Position numbers and translations under genes: made by a program. A DNA stretch of 64,000 nt from Cenococcum geophilum (taxonomy: Eukaryota), in NCBI GenBank assembly GCA_050273025.1, contig CP158635.1, forward strand, positions 16,430,001 to 16,494,000, given 5' to 3'. The notes under the pieces are model-generated. The model was not told the origin of the DNA. It ran no database searches and saw nothing but the letters and a program-made list of their open reading frames with translations. Position 1 is the first letter of the stretch. Each line of letters starts with the position of its first letter. Shown here one piece after another: positions 6,896-51,748 of this stretch.

Positions 6896-7900
6896 TTATA
6901 TTAGGTTTTAGAACTTTTATTTTACTATAGTTGTTATTTCTAGGTCTGTAAATATTTATATAAATTAGTTTATAAATCCATTCTAGCTTAAAAAATATAT
7001 ACTTAAATTTTAGGTTAGTAGTTATATCTTTATACTCTTATATCTTAATAAGGTAAGGTTTAAACTACTTAAGTACTCTTCCTATTAGGAATAGTCCCGC
7101 GTAAACTACTTAGTCTATTAGCGTAGCGAGCTTTATATCTTTCTATATTACTTTAAAACGTATTTATACTAAAAACCCCTTAAATTTTAACTTTTCTTCT
7201 AAAAATCGTTTAACTGATAATAACTTAACCTTTACTGCTCTAATTCCATTAATTTATTTTTTAAGTATTTAATTATTATCTATTAATTCGTTAACCATTT
7301 CTTATAATTAACCTACCGTAATAAGCTGTAAGTTAGTATCCCCGCTTATTTCTAAAGTAGTTACTATTATTAACGGCGTTATAACTAGTGCTTTTAGTAG
7401 TATATTGCTTAACTTATTAATACTATAACTAAGTAGTAAATATATAATAAAGCCTTATAGAAGATACTACGGTGGACTTATTATTAGGCTAGGTATATAG
7501 GTAATAAATAAGTTAACAACGTTAATATAATTAGCTATATAACTTAGCTACCTCTTATTTTATTACTTAATTAATTCTAGCGCCTTTTATACTATCTTAA
7601 CTAATCTATTTATATCTCTTTTTAGTAGTTTTACTACTACTAATATAAGGTCTATAATACTATTCCCCTCCTTTATCTTTATTCTTAAAAATATTTCCTA
7701 TCTTTAAGTTATCTATTAAAGGTATAGCATTTCTATCTTTAATTTAATAACCTTTATTATTTCTAATACCTTTTATTAGATCTTTTATATTTAACTATTA
7801 TAATTAGCTAATAACTGTAATTCTTTTATTTAATAATACTAAACCTTAATAAAGGCTAGAGATAGTTTACTCTATAGTTTTTTAGCCGCTTTTAATATAT
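6896..7900 (-). mobile_element. RIP-inactivated Gypsy fragment D: 3' internal end + PPT + shortened LTR (7443-7659) + leader/gag
   Basis: 6900-7440 aligns by eye to the Gypsy C leader/gag (GRVLK*FKPYL, de-RIP GRALEWFEPYL). 7660-7740 reverse complement matches the Gypsy C pre-LTR/PPT region (AAAGATAAAGGAGGGGAATAG vs AAAGATAAAGAGGAGGGAGATGG). Confidence 0.75.
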
Positions 7901-8291
7901 ACGACCCTATAAGAAATTAGATAAGGCACTAAATAAGTATAAAGAATATTAAAACGTGTATATTTAGCGTTGGAGATAGATTAAATATTATAAGATAACC
8001 GCATATTTGCTTATATATACTTAGTATATAAAGAATATTAGCAACTAAATAGAGAAGCTCTATATAAGGCTCTATACGAGGTTCTGCTCGAAGCTCTATT
8101 AAAGCTCTGCTCATAGCTCTGCACGAGGCTCTGTGCAAAACTTTATACTTAAGAAAGCTGGCCTACAGCGCGATAGAGGTATATGATTTGCGAAGCAGAT
8201 CCATACCTGCTCTTATGTATAAATAAAAATAATTAATTACTATAAACTAGAAGTATTAGCTAAAAGCAACAGCGAAGCATTACTACGGCCG

Positions 8292-22914: not shown

Positions 22915-23503
22915 TAGATGACTGTGGCTAGAACCAGACGACCGTCGCCAGAACTAGATGACTGTTATTAGGACGACCGTCATTAGGACCAGACGACCGT
23001 CGTTAGGACCAGACAACCGTCGTCAGGACCACCGTCGCCAGAACCAGACGACCGTTGCCAGAACCAGACGACCGTCGCCAGAATTAGACAACCGTTGTCA
23101 GGACCACCGTCGCCAGAACCAGACGACCGTCGCCAGAATTAGACGACCGTCGCCAGAACTAGACGACCGTCATCAGGACGACCGTCATCAGGACCAGACG
23201 ACCGTCGCCAGAACTAGACGACCGTCGTCAGGACCAGACAACCGTCGTCAGGACCAGACGACCGTCGCCAGAACCAGACGACCGTCGCCAGAATTAGACG
23301 ACCGTCGCCAGAACTAGACGACCGTCGCCAGAACTAGACGACCGTCGTCAGGACCAGACAACCGTCGTCAGGACCAGACGACCGTCGCCAGAACCAGACG
23401 ACCGTCGCCAGAATTAGACGACCGTCGCCAGAACTAGACGACCGTCGCCAGAACTAGACGACCGTCATCAGAACCAGACGACCGTCGCCAGAACTAGACG
23501 ACG
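22915..23503. repeat. Minisatellite of 20-bp units (CCAGACGACCGTCGCCAGAA and variants, some 15-bp)
   Basis: About 29 contiguous units. 23221-23340 and 23341-23460 are identical. Confidence 0.95.
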
Positions 23504-23624: not shown

Positions 23625-23810
23625 GACGGTAGGCACAGACAGGTAGGCATATACAGGTAGGCATAGATAGGTATAGGCAGGCAGGTAGGCAGGCAGGTAG
23701 GCAGGCAGGTAGGCAGGCAGGTAGGCAGGCAGGTAGGCAGGTAGGTAGGTAGGCAGGTAGGCAGGCAAGTAGGCAAGCAGGTAGGTAGGCAGGCACACAG
23801 GTAGGCGGGT
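23625..23810. repeat. Compound (GGCA/GGTA)n microsatellite
   Basis: Direct inspection; it explains the spurious LPAY/LPAC ORFs. Confidence 0.9.
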
Positions 23811-24034
23811 GCTAGGCCTAGTTAGGAAATCAGTACACGGCCGGTGGATCGTCAGGAATATCGCCAATTGACGATTTGGAGCCTCTGCAAGAGGCTTCCC
23901 ACTTATTTTAATTAATTGCTTAATAACCAAATTTTAAAATTTAAAACCTATTATTATTCCCATATAAATATTGCAGTTATAGAAAATATTATAACTATTA
24001 TAGTAAAAAGATATATTATAATTTTTAAAATTAA

Positions 24035-24117
24035 TATTATTAATATTACTAATATTGCTAATATTGCTAATATTGCTAATGTTGCTAATGTTGCTAATGT
24101 TGCTAATGTTGCTAATG
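24035..24117. repeat. 9-bp tandem repeat (GCTAATGTT)n, grading to RIP-like TAATATT variants leftward
   Basis: Direct inspection. Confidence 0.9.
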
Positions 24118-43797: not shown

Positions 43798-46700
43798 TGT
43801 TACGGACGCTTTAAGTACGATGTTATAACTACTTGGAGAAGAGACGGAAGAAGCTAGTTGGTTGATTTAGGCATGGTCCGGAATAGAGCCGATAGAACTA
43901 TATGATGAGGAATAGTAACCAAGGTTATATAATGTGCTACATATTAAACAAGAGGAACGAGAGGAACTTATATACCTTATATATAAGACGTATATTATAT
44001 ATAAGAAGGATTTTATAGGAGTATAGTTGTGTATTTAAGGACCCTTAATCCCTACCTAGATAGTTCCTTCCTTATAGTAATTCTTAGAATATAATTAGAG
44101 TTAATCTGTTAGGTAACTACTCCACTAGTTATTATTACGTTGTTAACTTTTATACTTATATTTTTTATATACCTAGCCTATTAACGAACCTATTATAGTT
44201 CTTGCTATAAGGTTCTATTATATAATTACTACCTAGTTATAGTATTAATATAAGAAGTTGAATAATATGCCACTAAAAGCAGCTACTATAATGCTATTGA
44301 CGGTAGTAACTACTTTAAGGATAGGAGGTGATACTAGTATAGCGGATACTAACTTATAGCAACCTATGACGGTTAAATAGCTATAGGAAATAGTTAATTA
44401 GCTAATAGCTAATAATATAGTGTTAGAAGAAAGACTTAATGGGATAGGAGCAGTAAAGATTAAGCTACTATTAATTGAGAGATTTATAGGAGAGAAGTTA
44501 AAGCTTAAAGGATTCCTTACGTAGATGCACTTTAAGGTCTTATAGGAAGGAGTAAAGTTACCTATACCCGTGGATTGGATAGCCTATATAGGACTATTCT
44601 TATTAGGAAAAGCACTTAAGTAGTTTAAACCTTACTTTATGGAGATATAGGCAAATGGAATAATGACCACTAATTAAGACGTATAATTTATGTTCTTAAG
44701 TTGGGAAGGATTTGTAGAATAACTTATATAGATATTTGGAGACCTAGAAGGAAAAACTATAGTAGAAAGAAAACTCTAGAACCTTATGTAATAAACTTTA
44801 GCAATTAAGTATATAATATAGTTCTAGATACTAGTAATATAAGTAGAGTAGAATAATAGGGCGCTTATGGTATAGTATAAATAGGGACTTAAGGCTAAAG
44901 TCTAGGACGTGATTATCCTAATGGAAGATGCGGATACCCTAAAGGAACTAATAGATTAGGCGATTAAGATTAATAATTAGATCTACTAAAGGGAATAGGC
45001 TAAGAGAGGCTAGGATAGAGTTCTATAGTTATATAAGGCGTAGAGTACGCAACAATAAAAGCTAAGTTAGAAACTATAGTATGGCGCAGAGCTAATGGAC
45101 CTAAGTGGTACTAAAGAAGCCTATAAGAGATAGAGCAAACTATAGAAACCTAGAGGATAAGGATTAAGTAATTAAAGGTCTAAGGAGTAGAGGCTGAATT
45201 AGGGATCTTAATAGCAGAAGATATTTAGGCGGACTCTATAATAAGAGAAATAGTTTAAAGAAGGAGCTTATATAAATTGCGGAAAATAGGGTTATTATGC
45301 TAGAGACTATAGAAGTGGGCAGAGTTACTACGTAGTAAAGGGTATAAGATTAGTAGATGATATATATATATAAAGGGACGATAATGTGCTGCGAGGAATA
45401 AAAGAGTGTTTAATTAGAAGTTTTGCGTTTTGTTATAATAACGTATACTAAATTTATAAGGACGCTAAGTATAGCGTAAGCTATTAGCTATAAGAGCTAG
45501 CACCTATAGGATGTAGAGGAACTAATGAACTAGTTTATAGATTAGATATTAAGAATAATGAATTCAACCTAGGCGAAATATTCCGTAATAATAAGGTAAT
45601 AAGGGCTGCTTACTAGGAGTGAGTAGACCTTGGAGATGTTATACTAGAGGTAGAGGATAATTCTATTATAGAATAAGGAATATTAGTAGGGATTAAAACC
45701 CTACTAGATACAATGTCTATCGCTTCGCAAGATATAAGAGAAGTAGGATAGTAAACCACTTTAGCACTCGATAAAGGCAAAAGGCTAAAAGCTTAAGATT
45801 CTTAAAATAAGATAAGAGATAACTAAGATTCTTAAAATGAGATAAGGTAAGCTTAAGGACCTATAATGGATAGAAACTAATGGAGTAAAGTAGCGGCTTA
45901 GTTTAAAGATATATAAATAAGCTTGGGATAAGAATTCCTAACGGCATAAGATTTTTAAGACGAGATAAGTGAGATTTAGGACTCTTAAGATAAGATAAGG
46001 ATACTAGTTAAGCTTAGTTGGACTAAGGTAGGGGCTAAGCTTAAGTTAGAAGCAAGCTTAGGATTAAAGAACCTAAGGGGTTAAGAATTTAGGGTACGAA
46101 TTAGGATACCCATAGATAAGAGGCTAGGAGCTTCTTTATAGATTAGAGAATCTGCGGTATAAATAGTAATTAGACTAGGAGATGAATATATAGACCTAGA
46201 AGATTTACTAGTTAAATAAAGTGTTCGGACTAAAGATCGAAAAGCCGATATTAGGATTAAGAAGTAAGATAACTTTAAGAATTAGAGCGTAAGGCGTAAA
46301 CTAAAAGAAACTATAGAAGAGTTTAGGTAAAGAATTATTGTATAGTAAGAACAGAAACTAGATAAAAGATCTAGTATATTAGGATGTATAAAGAATAGAG
46401 CGCTAGTACAAAGAATTACTAATAGGCTAAGAGCAGGCATACTAAGAGCTAAGTGGCTTACTAAACTGGAATAAGAAGAGGATTTAGGGATTCCTACTAG
46501 GTTTAAGGAATGATATACTAAAGGCTGTTATAACGCAGTAATAAAGAGATATTTCCTTACGGATAGACTGTATATACTCTAGCAGCTGTATTAAAAGTGG
46601 TATAGGCAACGATATAGTAATAAGTAGGAAGATTTCTATATATAGTTAGATAAAAAAGTTATCTAGGACTACCTAATTATAGAGAAGGCTATGACGTATA

Positions 46701-49700
46701 TTAAAGGAGCCTTAATTATAACATTAAAGGATCTAGAGGAATGTTTAGAGGACTAGAGAAGCGAGAGACGTATCTTAGTACCTATAAATAAAGTCGTAAT
46801 GTTTAGATTAGCATAATAAAGGTTTAAACTTAGGGATAAAGACGAGCTAAGAGTTAACCTAAAGCACCTAGTATACTATATAATATTATAGATTATATGT
46901 GTAGATAATATATGTGAAATATATAAGAATCCGAAAGAAAAGAATCGGAAATACCCTATAAGGATGTACTGGATAATAGATAAGCAATAGTACAGGAATG
47001 CTAAATATATGCATAAATAGCATCTAATAGAGATTTAAGAGGAAGGAAGTTTAGTACTTTAATTAGAAAGATTCCTTATAGAAGAATACTTAGACGGACA
47101 ATAGTAATGGGAATGCTTAGAGAATACGTATCTATAGTATATTAAAGATAAAAAGCGAACTAGGTATTGGCTAAAGAGTGAGCCAAGTGTACTAGGATTA
47201 AGTAGCTAATAGTTAGGAAAAGTAGAGGCCTATGGGACTAGAGGAAGCTAGTGGTAGAGCCTTAGACCCTTAAAGGAATTTAAGGATAACACCTAAATTT
47301 ATAAGTTAATTAGCAAGATTAGCAGTTTAAAGCGCTAATAGATAGTAGAGTAATATAAAACTATATTTCACTAGTAGCAGTTAAGAGAATGGGATTACCT
47401 TATAGATAAAAGGAGTAACTTTACCTATTAGTTACGATTTTAGGAGATCTAATAACCTATAGAGGAGGGATTATTAATCTTAAAATAGGACCTATTTAAA
47501 TAACTATTAAAGGAAGATAAATTAAGATGTCTTTTAATATCCTACTATTAGGACAGGATGAGGTAGTATTAGGTATGCCTTAGTTATAGGAATATAATCT
47601 AAGGATTAATTAGATTATAGGTTAGGTTAATATTAGAGATACTTAACGCTGTAAGATATAATAATAAGCTAAGATAGTATGGTATTAAGTAGGAGCAACC
47701 TATAAAGAAATAGAAAGAGGACTAAGCTATGTACTAAAGAGATACTATAAGTATAGTAAGAAACTATGGTCACTGGAAAGTAAAAAGCTGTTAGAATATA
47801 TAGTATAGGACTATAAAATAGAGTTAGAACTAGGAATAAGTCTAAGGTTCTTTCTAATCTATAAGCTTACCGAAGAAGAAGGTAGAGCGTTAAAAGAATT
47901 TGTTTAGGAAAATCTATAGAAGGGATATATTAGACTATTGTAATTATTAGCGGGTTATCTAGTACTATTTATACTAAAGAAGAATGGTAAACTAAGGCTA
48001 TATATTAACTATAGATAGTTAAACAGCATTACTAGAAAGGATAGGTATTCTTTACCCTTAATTAGCGAAATTTAAAATAGGATAGGTAATATATAAATCT
48101 TTATAAAGATAGATCTGAGATAGGCATACTATTAGATTAGGATTAAGGAAGGCAATAAATGGAAGGCAGCCTTTAGGTTAAAGGAAGGACTGTATAAACT
48201 ATTAGTTATGTAATTTAGGCTTATAAACGTACTAGTAACGTTCTAGAAGTGTATTAATAATGTATTAGGAGAATACTTGGATGAATTTGTTATAGTATAT
48301 CTTAATGATATTATTATCTACTTAATAACTAAGGAAGAATATGGGGAACATGTTAAATAGGTCTTAAAGAGACTATAAGAAAAATAGATACTAGTAGCAA
48401 TTAAGAAATGCGAGTTCTTTACTAGGAAGACCAATTTTGTTAGATTTATTATTAAACTAGGCTAACTTAGTATAGATCTAAAGAAGATTAAGGCTATAGT
48501 AAATTAGTAGGAACTAGAGAATATTATATAGTTAAGATTGTTTTTAGGGTTTTGCAATTACTGTAGAAGGTTTATAGCGCAATAGTTAAAGGATATTAAG
48601 CTATTTATACGGTTAATAAAGAAAGAAGAACTATAGGCATAGGGGGAGGAGTAAAGAGAACTCTTTAAGAAAGTTAAAGAGTTGTTTACCTAGGAGCCAG
48701 TTCTTAAGATCTATTAACTAGGACTAGAGATAGTTGTAGAAATAGATATATTAGACTATATACTAGGGGCGTGCTTTATATAAAGGTATTAAAATAGATG
48801 GTACCTAGTGGCATACTATAGTTAGAAGATAATACTATTAGAGTTAAACTATAATATCTATAATAAGGAGTTATTAGGTATAGTTGTAGTATTAAAGGAA
48901 TAGAGAGTATTCTTATAAGGTATAGAGAAACTATTTATGGTTAAGATAGATTATAAGAACCTAATAGGATTCCTAATAACAAAGGAACTTAACTAAAGAT
49001 AGGTTAGATGGGTAGAGATGCTTGCGGAATACTATTTCAAGATTTAGTATACTAAAGGTATAGATAATACGCGGGTAGATACTCTAAGCCGCAAAGCTAA
49101 ACTATAAAATAAGGAAAAGCCATTAGGGGCTTTATTGCGAAAGGATATAGACGGATTGATTAGGTATAATCACCCGAAAATTATAGCAACTTAAGAAGAC
49201 GATAAACTAGAGAAAGTCTATAAGATACTAGAAAGCTTTTAGGTATAAAGAATTCTAGAAGTATAGCTAGAAGATTTATAGATGGATATATATAAGAATT
49301 AAGAAGCTAAGTATATTCTAAGAAGTATAGCAAAGTAGTTCATAGAGGACTTCTATAAGGGACTAACCTAAGGATATAATAGAGCTATGAGCTTAGTATT
49401 AAGACTCTAGGAGGAGTACATTATTAATAGAATCTAGAGGATAGCTAGAAAGGTTATAAAGGAATATCTAGATTACTAAAGGAATAAATTAATAAGGTAT
49501 AAGCTATATAGAGGGCTATAACCTATTAAAATACCAAAGAGACTATAGGAGGTTATATTATAGGACTTTATTATTAAGTTGCTAAAATTAAAAGATCCTA
49601 TTACCAGACAAGATTATAACGTAATCTTAGTAATAGTAGATAAGCTTATAAAGTAGGGATACTTTATAGCATGCACAGAAGAAATTTTAGCGGAAGATGT

Positions 49701-51748
49701 CGCTAGAATCTATGTTAAAGAAGTGTTTATAAGACATAGAGTACTAAGTAAGATTATATCAGATAGAGATCTAAGATTTATAGTAGCATTCTGGGAAGTG
49801 TTCTTAGCGGAGTAAGGAGTTTAAGTAGTAACTTTTACCGTATATTATCTATAGACAGACAGTTAAACGGAAAGGTTAAATTAGACGCTAGAGTAGTACC
49901 TAAGGTATTATGTTAATTATGTATAGAACAATTAGGTATTGCTATTACTAGTTATATAGTTTGTATATAATATAACACCTTAAGAAGAAATAGGTATATT
50001 ACTATTTAAGGCAAATTATAGATATACGCTAAGAATATTATTGTTACTATGGCAAGTAAAGAAAATAAGTAGTATAGCTAAAGAGAGAATAAAGACATTA
50101 ATAAATCTTTATACAGACCTTATGGAATTAGTAAAGAAAGTATAAGAGAGAATAAAAAAGTACTATAATGCTAAGAGATTTAAGGGACTAGATCTTAAGG
50201 AGGGAGATAAAGTATAGCTACTATATAAAAATTTTAAGAGTTAACGACTAAGTAAGAAATTGGACTACGTTAGACTAAGACCTTTTAAAATTATATAAAG
50301 GATTTCACTAGTTATATTTAAGATTAACCTACTAGCTAAAATAAAGATCTACCCTATATAGTATATTACGATACTAGAGCTAGTATACGGAGATATTAAG
50401 CTACTAATCTATAAAGCAGATATATATAGAGGATAAGAGGAAGATAAATGGCAAGTATTAAAGATTGTTAATTATAAGGATATTAATGACGAAACATAGT
50501 ATAAGGTTAAGTAAATAGGCTACACTAAGACTACCTAGGAGCTACTAAAGAATTTAAAGAACGCTATAAGAAAGGTATAGGAGTATTAGAAGAGATTAGG
50601 TTAGGTAGCATTAATAAAAAAGAATTACTAGAGAATAAGTCACCTAAGGGGGACCTAAGAAGAGTAGTTGCTAAGCTACTTAGATCTATTCCCTTCTCTA
50701 TTAAAAGAGAATCTGTTTTTTTATTACCTAGTTCCTATAGACCTTATTTTATAAGTTTCTACTCCTTAAAATAAACCTTCTTACAAACCTTCTTAAGACA
50801 AAGTAAACGAGTAGATGCCGTAATTTAAGTATTTAGGGCCTTCTATTCCGCATTACGGGAACGTTTTAACTTAGTAAGGGCTTATAATAGTTTACTATCT
50901 AGCCGCGTAGTAGTAGATTAAATATAAGACCCTAAGATAAATTAATTAGGGAACTAGATAACTATTAAGAGTAATAGGTTATATATATTTAGTATTAGAA
51001 GTAGAGCAAATATTATAGGACAAATAAATATTCGCTTTAGTATACTCTAAGTAAGAGGATAGTTATTACAAAGATAGGTTTGCCAACGCAATATAAACTA
51101 ACCCCTTTTTTAAATAATAAGAATATAGAGACGGTATAATCTTACTAAGAGATAATATTGCAGTAATAGTGCGAGCACGACGTTGGGCGTGTAAAGAAGA
51201 AATTGCTTTAGGTATAATAAGCAATAATATTAACTAAATTAATTAAACGGATATTATACCTCTAGTGAATAACTTAGAGATGTTTTAAATCTTTAAGGAT
51301 AAAGATAAAGAGGAGGGAGATGGTGTTACGGACGCTTTAAGTACAATGTTATAACTACTTGGAGAAGAGACGGAAGAAGCTAGTTAGTTAATTTAGGCAT
51401 AGTCTAGAATAGAGCCGATAGAACTATATAATAAGGAATAGTAACTAAGGTTATATAATGTGCTATATATTAAATAAAAGGAACAAGAGGAACTTACATA
51501 CCTTATATATAAGACGTATATTATGTATAAGAAGGATTTTATAGGAGTATGGTTGTGTATTTAAGGACCCTTAGTCCCTACCTAGATAGTTCCTTCCTTA
51601 TAGTAATTCTCAGAATATAATTAGAGTTAATCTGTTGGGCAACCACTCCACCAGTTATTATTACGTTGTTGACTTTTGTACTTGCATTTCCTATACACCT
51701 AGCCTATTGATGAACCCATCGTAGTTCTTGCTACAAGGTTCCGTTATA
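43798..51748 (+). mobile_element. Gypsy C (chromovirus), complete, RIP-inactivated, 7.95 kb
   Basis: 425-bp LTRs at 43798-44222 and 51324-51748; TSD GCAGC/GTAGC (one RIP change); PPT at 51300-51323. gag ATG at ~44267, knuckle at ~45270, RT YLNDIIIY at ~48298, integrase, chromodomain at ~50440-50590. Confidence 0.96.
50600..51215 (-). pseudogene. RIP-inactivated antisense accessory gene of Gypsy C: Zn(II)2Cys6-like cluster + coiled coil, one intron (50932-50986)
   Basis: Six Tyr codons (TAT/TAC, the RIP products of TGT/TGC) spaced x2-x6-x13-x2-x8. ATA start and ATATAT donor match RIPed ATG and GTATGT. CTAAT branch and TTAG acceptor present. 3' end approximate. Confidence 0.7.

Follow-up and report, generated by a model that had tools for sequence, protein, structure and literature searches.

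The 64,000 nucleotides (nt) of Cenococcum geophilum DNA analysed here (assembly GCA_050273025.1, contig CP158635.1, positions 16,430,001 to 16,494,000; below, the window) hold the remains of a spliced antisense gene between the pol gene and the 3′ long terminal repeat (LTR) of a Ty3/Gypsy retrotransposon. We regard it as almost certain that this is a real, conserved gene. The explanation that best covers the evidence as a whole, and that we hold with moderate confidence, is that the window contains a copy, dead through repeat-induced point mutation (RIP), of a real accessory gene whose product carries six cysteines and, after them, a heptad helix. There is support for the existence of the gene, for its orientation and intron, and for both of these features of the product; identity as a Gal4-type protein and a role as a regulator are plausible but unproven.

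The evidence comes from relatives of the gene. Their profile, which includes no window sequence, matches the window at 50982-51230 with an expectation value (E) of 4.4e-23 and at 50567-50923 with E 2.1e-29, and the two matches fall in different minus-strand frames. Beyond both exons and a stray fragment at 7900-8055, the relatives' profiles gave no further significant match in the window. The gene model in the window is the following:

50987..51215, minus strand: exon 1, 229 nt, the site of the first profile match
51215-51213, minus strand: start codon of exon 1, mutated to ATA
51015..51125, minus strand: six-cysteine cluster, Cx2Cx6Cx13Cx2Cx8C in relatives, all six codons TAY in the window
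51063-51068, minus strand: two in-frame TAA stops of exon 1, seen in translation
50932..50986, minus strand: intron, 55 nt, beginning ATATAT and ending TTAG, donor GT mutated to AT
50564..50931, minus strand: exon 2, the site of the second profile match, with heptad helix, acidic stretch and conserved C-terminal motif
7900..8055, minus strand: stray fragment (3′ half) of exon 1, a second copy (hmmsearch E 1.3e-10), also matched by the relative P0001

An earlier sequence-only reading of 50600-51215 had proposed a RIP-mutated zinc-cluster gene on the minus strand, and the peptide it quoted is exact. The six codons it took for former cysteines are indeed all TAT or TAC, with TAC at 51051-51053 and TAT at the other five (51123-51125, 51114-51116, 51093-51095, 51042-51044 and 51015-51017). 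The intron ends are also as proposed, and a branch-like CTAAT, which contains the intron's invariant TAA, lies at 50949-50945, 14 nt ahead of the intron end. The exons join in frame only when 50986-50932 is removed, yielding 597 nt, or 198 codons plus a stop, with Trp at the junction. In the window, seven stops interrupt exon 2, whose own stop codon is at 50566-50564. Tail-to-tail with pol, exon 2 overlaps the pol end by its final 41 nt; at the other end the antisense gene begins about 110 nt to the inside of the 3′ LTR. The copy in the window cannot work, with ATG changed to ATA, all six Cys changed to Tyr, the donor GT changed to AT and nine internal stops. The stray exon 1 fragment is also seen by blastn, which aligns 50918-51046 with 7892-8021 at 71.5% identity.

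Relatives, cysteine columns and the intron

The window copy taken alone is not distinguishable from chance. We searched six frames of the window and of 200 dinucleotide-preserving shuffles for the pattern [YC]x2[YC]x6[YC]x5-16[YC]x2[YC]x6-8[YC], and found 4 occurrences in the window and a mean of 1.49 in the shuffled windows. The pattern was present in 74.5% of shuffled windows (26% when counting the element's stretch only), and the Tyr spacing in the single window copy is not beyond chance. Every stop codon of the reading can be reverted by undoing C>T or G>A changes, and minus-strand frames that face a purine-rich coding strand have few stops anyway. Given these shuffle rates and the universal reversibility of the stops, the reading with RIP undone is not judgeable from a single copy. 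All of this is what one would expect if there were no gene, and the Tyr spacing and open de-RIP frames had arisen by chance in an AT-rich, RIP-mutated spacer. We give that view practically no chance of being right, however, and consider it refuted: the window-free profile matches the window, the 163 and 308 relatives described below exist, their six cysteine columns hold only Cys or Tyr, and spliced forms occur among them. The observation is significant only through its relatives. Two of the window's four pattern matches are supplied by the tandem array at 24032-24117 (9 nt x 9); the window has further arrays at 22972-23502 (20 nt x 27) and 23674-23793 (12 nt x 10).

Other DNA copies of the element were sought in metagenome contigs with a purine/pyrimidine pattern covering any RIP state of 51060-51128. 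Eight further copies were found, 81-87% identical to the window; the same pattern gave 0 matches in viral contigs. The copies bear out part of the reconstruction that had been proposed from the window. Cys positions 1 and 2 are TGT in copies L001 and L003, position 5 is TGT or TGC in four copies and position 6 in two. Both proposed Arg positions are found as CGT, the proposed Pro as CCG and the Asp as GAC, and each of the two loop TAA stops is CAA in L003 and L007. Two subfamilies are separated by a 21-nt indel that preserves the frame. Transversions between subfamilies A and B (n=21) are clustered at 51183-51192 and 50800-50885, with none in the cysteine region. The element family is extremely abundant in DNA runs (57,326 contigs aligned in run X1), and the depth of family contigs falls several-fold at 50796-50859 and 50988-51179 relative to pol and LTR. 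The low-depth, indel-bearing stretch at the start of the helix is fast-changing.

The nine copies were translated straight through, with X written for each stop, and the resulting profile was run with hmmsearch against 1.84 billion representative proteins and found 163 clusters at E<=1e-3, 61 of them at E<=1e-10. These clusters are mutually <=50% identical, and the start, the cysteines, the intron and the C-terminal motif are kept across them. Further searches were made with P0140, P0151 and a 22-sequence alignment of less mutated relatives, the alignment profile yielding 308 proteins. The closest relatives of the window family are P0001 (62% identity to exon 1 over 89 amino acids), P0155 and P0173; exon 2 is 51% identical to P0179 over 103 amino acids. 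The family was seen in fungi only. None of the relatives listed has a precomputed Pfam domain, and all come from metagenome sources without an informative name; a cluster look-up of ten relatives returned unnamed singletons only, and no NCBI name occurs among the matches listed (best 150 of 163; best 120 of 308).

In the best 150 of the 163 cluster matches, the six cysteine columns contain Cys or Tyr only (Y82/C60, Y83/C60, Y115/C30, Y90/C41, C70/Y62 and Y60/C59 from first to sixth). Since RIP converts TGY to TAY and never back, these columns were Cys, as the sequence-only reading had supposed. The proposed Arg columns show the mix of R, C, H and Y expected of CGY. The Ser-Glu that had been placed after the second Cys was not borne out. 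Among 286 fetched proteins, all six Cys are intact in 8 and the pattern with C or Y fits 225; the spacings of 13 and 8 residues are kept in 218 of 219. The natural intact cluster of P0151 reads CSRCAKEGLVCVAIAAPAGRQPSSCAECTRANMRSFC. Even where all nine DNA copies have Tyr, relatives show Cys: position 3 in P0001 and P0173, position 4 in P0155. Where the window has its two loop stops the relatives read R-Q, in line with the CAA codons of the DNA copies, and 201 of the 286 begin with MP at the start position of exon 1.

The intron is visible in the same proteins. In 168 of the 286, Cys or Tyr spans the donor (T followed by GT or AT) and the sequence then runs on into the intron. Six others (P0151, P0169, P0171, P0174, P0175 and P0177) have Trp at the junction (T followed by GG) and continue directly into the exon 2 helix, matching removal of exactly 50986-50932; a regular expression finds five of these, and P0177 was added by eye. 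These counts agree with the GT donor that had been predicted at 50986. Six divergent intron-less forms, against 168 that retain the intron, are most simply explained as products of spliced transcripts. P0140 joins both exons with one extra residue rather than the Trp junction, which we read as an imprecise variant. The intron would persist through retrotransposition because the genomic RNA is the opposite strand.

The host element and the place of the gene

The gene lies in an LTR retrotransposon with the following features:

43798..44222, plus strand: 5′ LTR, a 425-nt direct repeat, 91.3% identical to 51324-51748
44223..50604, plus strand: RIP-mutated gag-pol, the pol frame stopping at 50602-50604
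51295..51323, plus strand: polypurine tract adjoining the 3′ LTR, placed from the sequence and the LTR boundary
51324..51748, plus strand: 3′ LTR, 425 nt, from which the antisense transcript presumably arises

AT-richness throughout the element (G+C 28-33%) and a heavy load of stops (290 counted in one frame) together indicate RIP. When 46501-50601 is translated with X in place of stops, it matches the Pfam families RVT_1 (E 1.9e-17), RT_RNaseH (E 2.6e-17) and RT_RNaseH_2 (E 4e-16) and, below the cutoff, SH3_Tf2-1, in the order RVT_1, RT_RNaseH, then Tf2-type SH3. Neither rve nor Chromo reaches E 0.01 in this mutated copy, and the integrase-like stretch and the chromodomain-like tail at the pol end were recognised by eye only. 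With its LTR pair, polypurine tract and order of reverse transcriptase and RNase H, and with integrase and chromodomain recognised by eye, the element is a Ty3/Gypsy LTR retrotransposon (chromovirus). The stray exon 1 fragment at 7900-8055 lies at the edge of an AT-rich block, beside pieces of a related element; 44125-44852 matches 7534-6835 at 71% identity. Opposite exon 2, the longest raw open reading frame (ORF) of the region occupies 50529-50774 on the plus strand (81 amino acids); in the de-RIP view it extends without a stop for about 110 codons and is not in the frame of pol. The codon make-up of the antisense gene probably accounts for this ORF, the alternative being a third reading frame.

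The linkage of the gene to LTR elements that had been anticipated is observed. In 9 of 9 DNA copies the gene lies between pol and LTR. In 12 divergent relatives the called ORF runs in from the LTR edge, crosses the antisense polypurine tract and then enters the Met-Pro start; the start is about 35-40 codons to the inside of that tract. P0169, one of the intron-less relatives, has an open 5′ end that matches minus-strand positions 51333-51286 and crosses the LTR edge, which fits a transcription start inside the 3′ LTR and is not proof of one.

One could suppose that the gene is a fragment of a host gene, captured once by an element lineage and carried as a passenger without a role. No host paralogue or function is known, and P0178, modelled as a gene on a contig of 120,785 nt, has only the exon 2 part behind a different N-terminus. 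We nevertheless find a captured passenger very improbable: the location is constant in the 12 divergent relatives and in all nine DNA copies, the 163 clusters retain the start, the cysteines, the intron and the C-terminal motif, and the subfamily indel preserves the frame. P0178 could itself be a domesticated or mis-modelled copy.

Some RNA reads touch the element. In run X21, which carries the label of a related organism, reads at 50476-50795 and 51308-51700 diverge from the window and continue into unlike sequence, and 11 of 11 reads differ from the window at 50550, 50558 and 50559. A related, less mutated element therefore seems to be transcribed in that organism. As a lead only, for which no chance control was made, a de-RIP view of nine sequences shows a CGG-N7-CCG inverted pair about 80 nt into the LTR (51324-51748), the type of site bound by zinc-cluster factors.

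Zinc-cluster likeness and the nature of the product

The DNA-binding region of Gal4-type factors is ordered as cluster, linker and heptad helix, and Gal4-type clusters have a basic-rich stretch between the second and third Cys. The window's family resembles the Gal4-type Zn(II)2Cys6 factors (PF00172; Gal4, Ppr1, Put3 and Hap1 among them) in its six-cysteine spacing, in the heptad helix that follows, in being found in fungi only and in its recurrent sub-threshold matches to Zn_clus and PPR1. It differs in staying below the Pfam cutoff, in having a 13-residue loop longer than that of most members and in being encoded by a retrotransposon. Its protein is also short, about 200 residues compared with larger cellular factors, whose large middle region it lacks.

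Several lines of evidence point to a zinc cluster. The family spacing Cx2Cx6Cx13Cx2Cx8C falls within the motif of a published Zn2Cys6 screen, CysX2CysX6CysX5-16CysX2CysX6-8Cys (as given in an excerpt of PMC2447501). PF00172 (Zn_clus) is the most recurrent Pfam match, found for 6 of the 22 members of the set A4 and for 5 of the 8 proteins with all six Cys. The best match among PDB sequences is PPR1 (1pyi, E 0.56), and the ESM Atlas cluster nearest to P0169 is an ascomycete one (score 0.92) automatically named 'Zn(2)-C6 fungal-type domain-containing protein'. After the cluster, AlphaFold2 predicts a helix at residues 77-151 with a predicted local distance difference test (pLDDT) of 94-98. In 4 of 5 relatives, only 16-23 of 2000 shuffles attained the hydrophobic power of this helix at period 3.5; the power was weaker at period 3.6. 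Judged by its sequence, the protein appears to have the motif and architecture of a small Gal4-type DNA-binding region, with PF00172 scores that remain below the family cutoff.

Several results weigh against this explanation or parts of it. The Pfam scan did not return the membership that the zinc-cluster proposal had looked for: the PF00172 cutoff of 21 bits was never reached, the best scores being 13.6 (P0151), 13.1 (P0186), 11.1 (P0199), 8.4 (P0216) and 8.1 (P0169). The six-Cys proteins P0123, P0086 and P0282 give no PF00172 match, and there is no Zn_clus match in the 9 RIP-mutated copies or in one set of 15 proteins scanned. In P0151 and P0186 the alignment to Zn_clus pairs the first Cys triad with the model's second half. 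Searching PDB sequences by profile gave no match, the cysteine part alone retrieves only unnamed ESM Atlas clusters at <=0.84, and a Foldseek search of the P0151 model against the PDB returned 0 matches. AlphaFold2 places the cysteine region at pLDDT 42-67 in two runs, with no confident fold. The heptad-rich region that had been proposed stands in the period-3.5 signal of four relatives; in the fifth relative that power was reached by 174 of 2000 shuffles, and a crude test of a/d positions in a 35-residue helix core was not better than shuffles. The predicted splice junction was not recovered from RNA: the 88 aligned reads of X21, 87 of them partial fits, contain no splice joint, and none falls within 50796-51051. 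Finally, all nine DNA copies carry the mutated state at Cys positions 3 and 4, at the start codon (ATA) and at the donor (A), and this part of the reconstruction finds no backing in them. The chance that a RIP site is lost in all nine copies is 0.04 per site (binomial; an overdispersed fit did not converge).

Two of these bodies of evidence are neutral on their own. The nine copies contain 58 polymorphic CpA/TpG sites, 0 invariant CpA or TpG and 60 invariant TpA, and by themselves they do not decide the ancestral state. The structure predicted for the cluster is uninformative in both directions; the mean pLDDT for P0186 modelled with 115 sequences is 55.5.

The rival that these results favour most is a real gene whose product is an orphan cysteine-rich coiled-coil protein rather than a Gal4-type DNA binder. 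Such a protein could serve as an adaptor, bind RNA or protein in the retrotransposition cycle, or counter silencing. In the present family the second and third Cys are not separated by a basic-rich stretch, which we take to be a contrast with Gal4-type clusters. The PF00172 cutoff is never reached, 3 of the 8 six-Cys proteins have no match at all, the cysteine part lacks a confident fold and any structural or PDB-profile match, and the function of such antisense ORFs, that of brtn (discussed below) included, is stated as not known (in excerpts of PMC7264820). Against an orphan protein stand the exact six-Cys spacing within the Zn2Cys6 screen motif (PMC2447501, excerpt), Zn_clus as the most recurrent Pfam family with PPR1 as the best PDB sequence match, and a cluster, linker and heptad helix in the order of a Gal4-type DNA-binding region in a family seen only in fungi. 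We find it doubtful, if well worth keeping in mind.

Under the preferred explanation, a RIP-dead copy of an accessory gene with a six-Cys, heptad-helix product, intact relatives would start at Met-Pro about 110 nt to the inside of the 3′ LTR and opposite gag-pol, would contain one 55-nt intron and would end overlapping the last pol codons. The product, of about 200 residues, would comprise a short basic and hydrophobic N-terminal helix, the Cx2Cx6Cx13Cx2Cx8C cluster, a heptad helix of about 75 residues, an acidic stretch and the conserved C-terminal motif. Transcription may be driven by an antisense promoter in the 3′ LTR. The six cysteines may bind two zinc ions as in Gal4-type clusters, and a zinc-binding cluster is quite probable; the case for a Gal4-like fold is evenly balanced. 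The helix may dimerise, and the protein may bind DNA and regulate the element or host genes, a role as DNA-binding regulator being possible and a little short of even. Altogether, the earlier interpretation is partly supported, and such elements may carry their own regulator.

Known antisense genes of retroelements and significance

The arrangement is already known from brtn; what is new is how broad the family is and that its make-up resembles a zinc cluster. The original study of brtn reportedly appeared in Virology (417:248) in 2011. Excerpts of four papers describe brtn, in Boty-like Gypsy elements of Botrytis and Sclerotinia, as an antisense gene that lies between pol and the 3′ LTR (PMC7264820, PMC8365987, PMC4227169, PMC5987419), and one of them reports a Monilinia transcript similar to a truncated Pol plus BRTN (PMC5987419). 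As in the window, the host is a fungal Ty3/Gypsy element whose pol bears a chromodomain, and the extra gene occupies the opposite strand between pol and the 3′ LTR (excerpts of PMC7264820 and PMC4227169). The likeness is one of position and orientation as described in these excerpts, which mention neither six cysteines nor an intron nor a coiled coil for brtn, and no listed relative is named BRTN.

The plant Ty3/Gypsy elements Grande, RIRE2, Retand and PvRetro13 also have an antisense ORF at this place, described as kept within families, as occurring in most copies and as having an unknown function (PMC7264820, in excerpt). These elements belong to other lineages and, on the descriptions in that excerpt, which mentions no cysteine cluster, are likened by position and orientation only. 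The HBZ gene of human T-cell leukaemia virus type 1 (HTLV-1) is read from the minus strand, transcribed from the 3′ LTR and spliced, and encodes a transcription-factor-like protein with a dimerising helix. HBZ differs in belonging to a vertebrate retrovirus and in being a basic leucine zipper protein instead of a cysteine-cluster one; the likeness is an analogy, with no homology implied. A literature search, judged by titles and the beginnings of abstracts, found nothing closer than brtn on an antisense Zn2Cys6 gene of a retrotransposon; PMC3248453 mentions neither antisense genes nor zinc.

We put forward tentatively, at somewhat less than even confidence, that many ascomycete chromoviruses may be 'complex' retroelements that encode a Gal4-like, dimeric zinc-cluster factor from a spliced antisense transcript of the 3′ LTR, by which they would tune their expression or escape silencing through sites in LTRs or host promoters. 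Such a factor would be, by analogy, the fungal counterpart of HTLV-1 HBZ.

Fungal LTR retrotransposons are usually treated as gag-pol only, and here a large family of spliced antisense genes has a fixed place in Gypsy elements. For annotation, the lesson is that a real gene can be recovered from a single copy by de-RIP reasoning. If the family proved homologous to brtn, the function-unknown antisense gene of Boty would gain a testable identity. If the product does turn out to be a regulator of the zinc-cluster type, the elements would come with a transcription factor of their own, which would bear on how elements are switched on, how regulatory sites spread and how silencing works in RIP-rich genomes.

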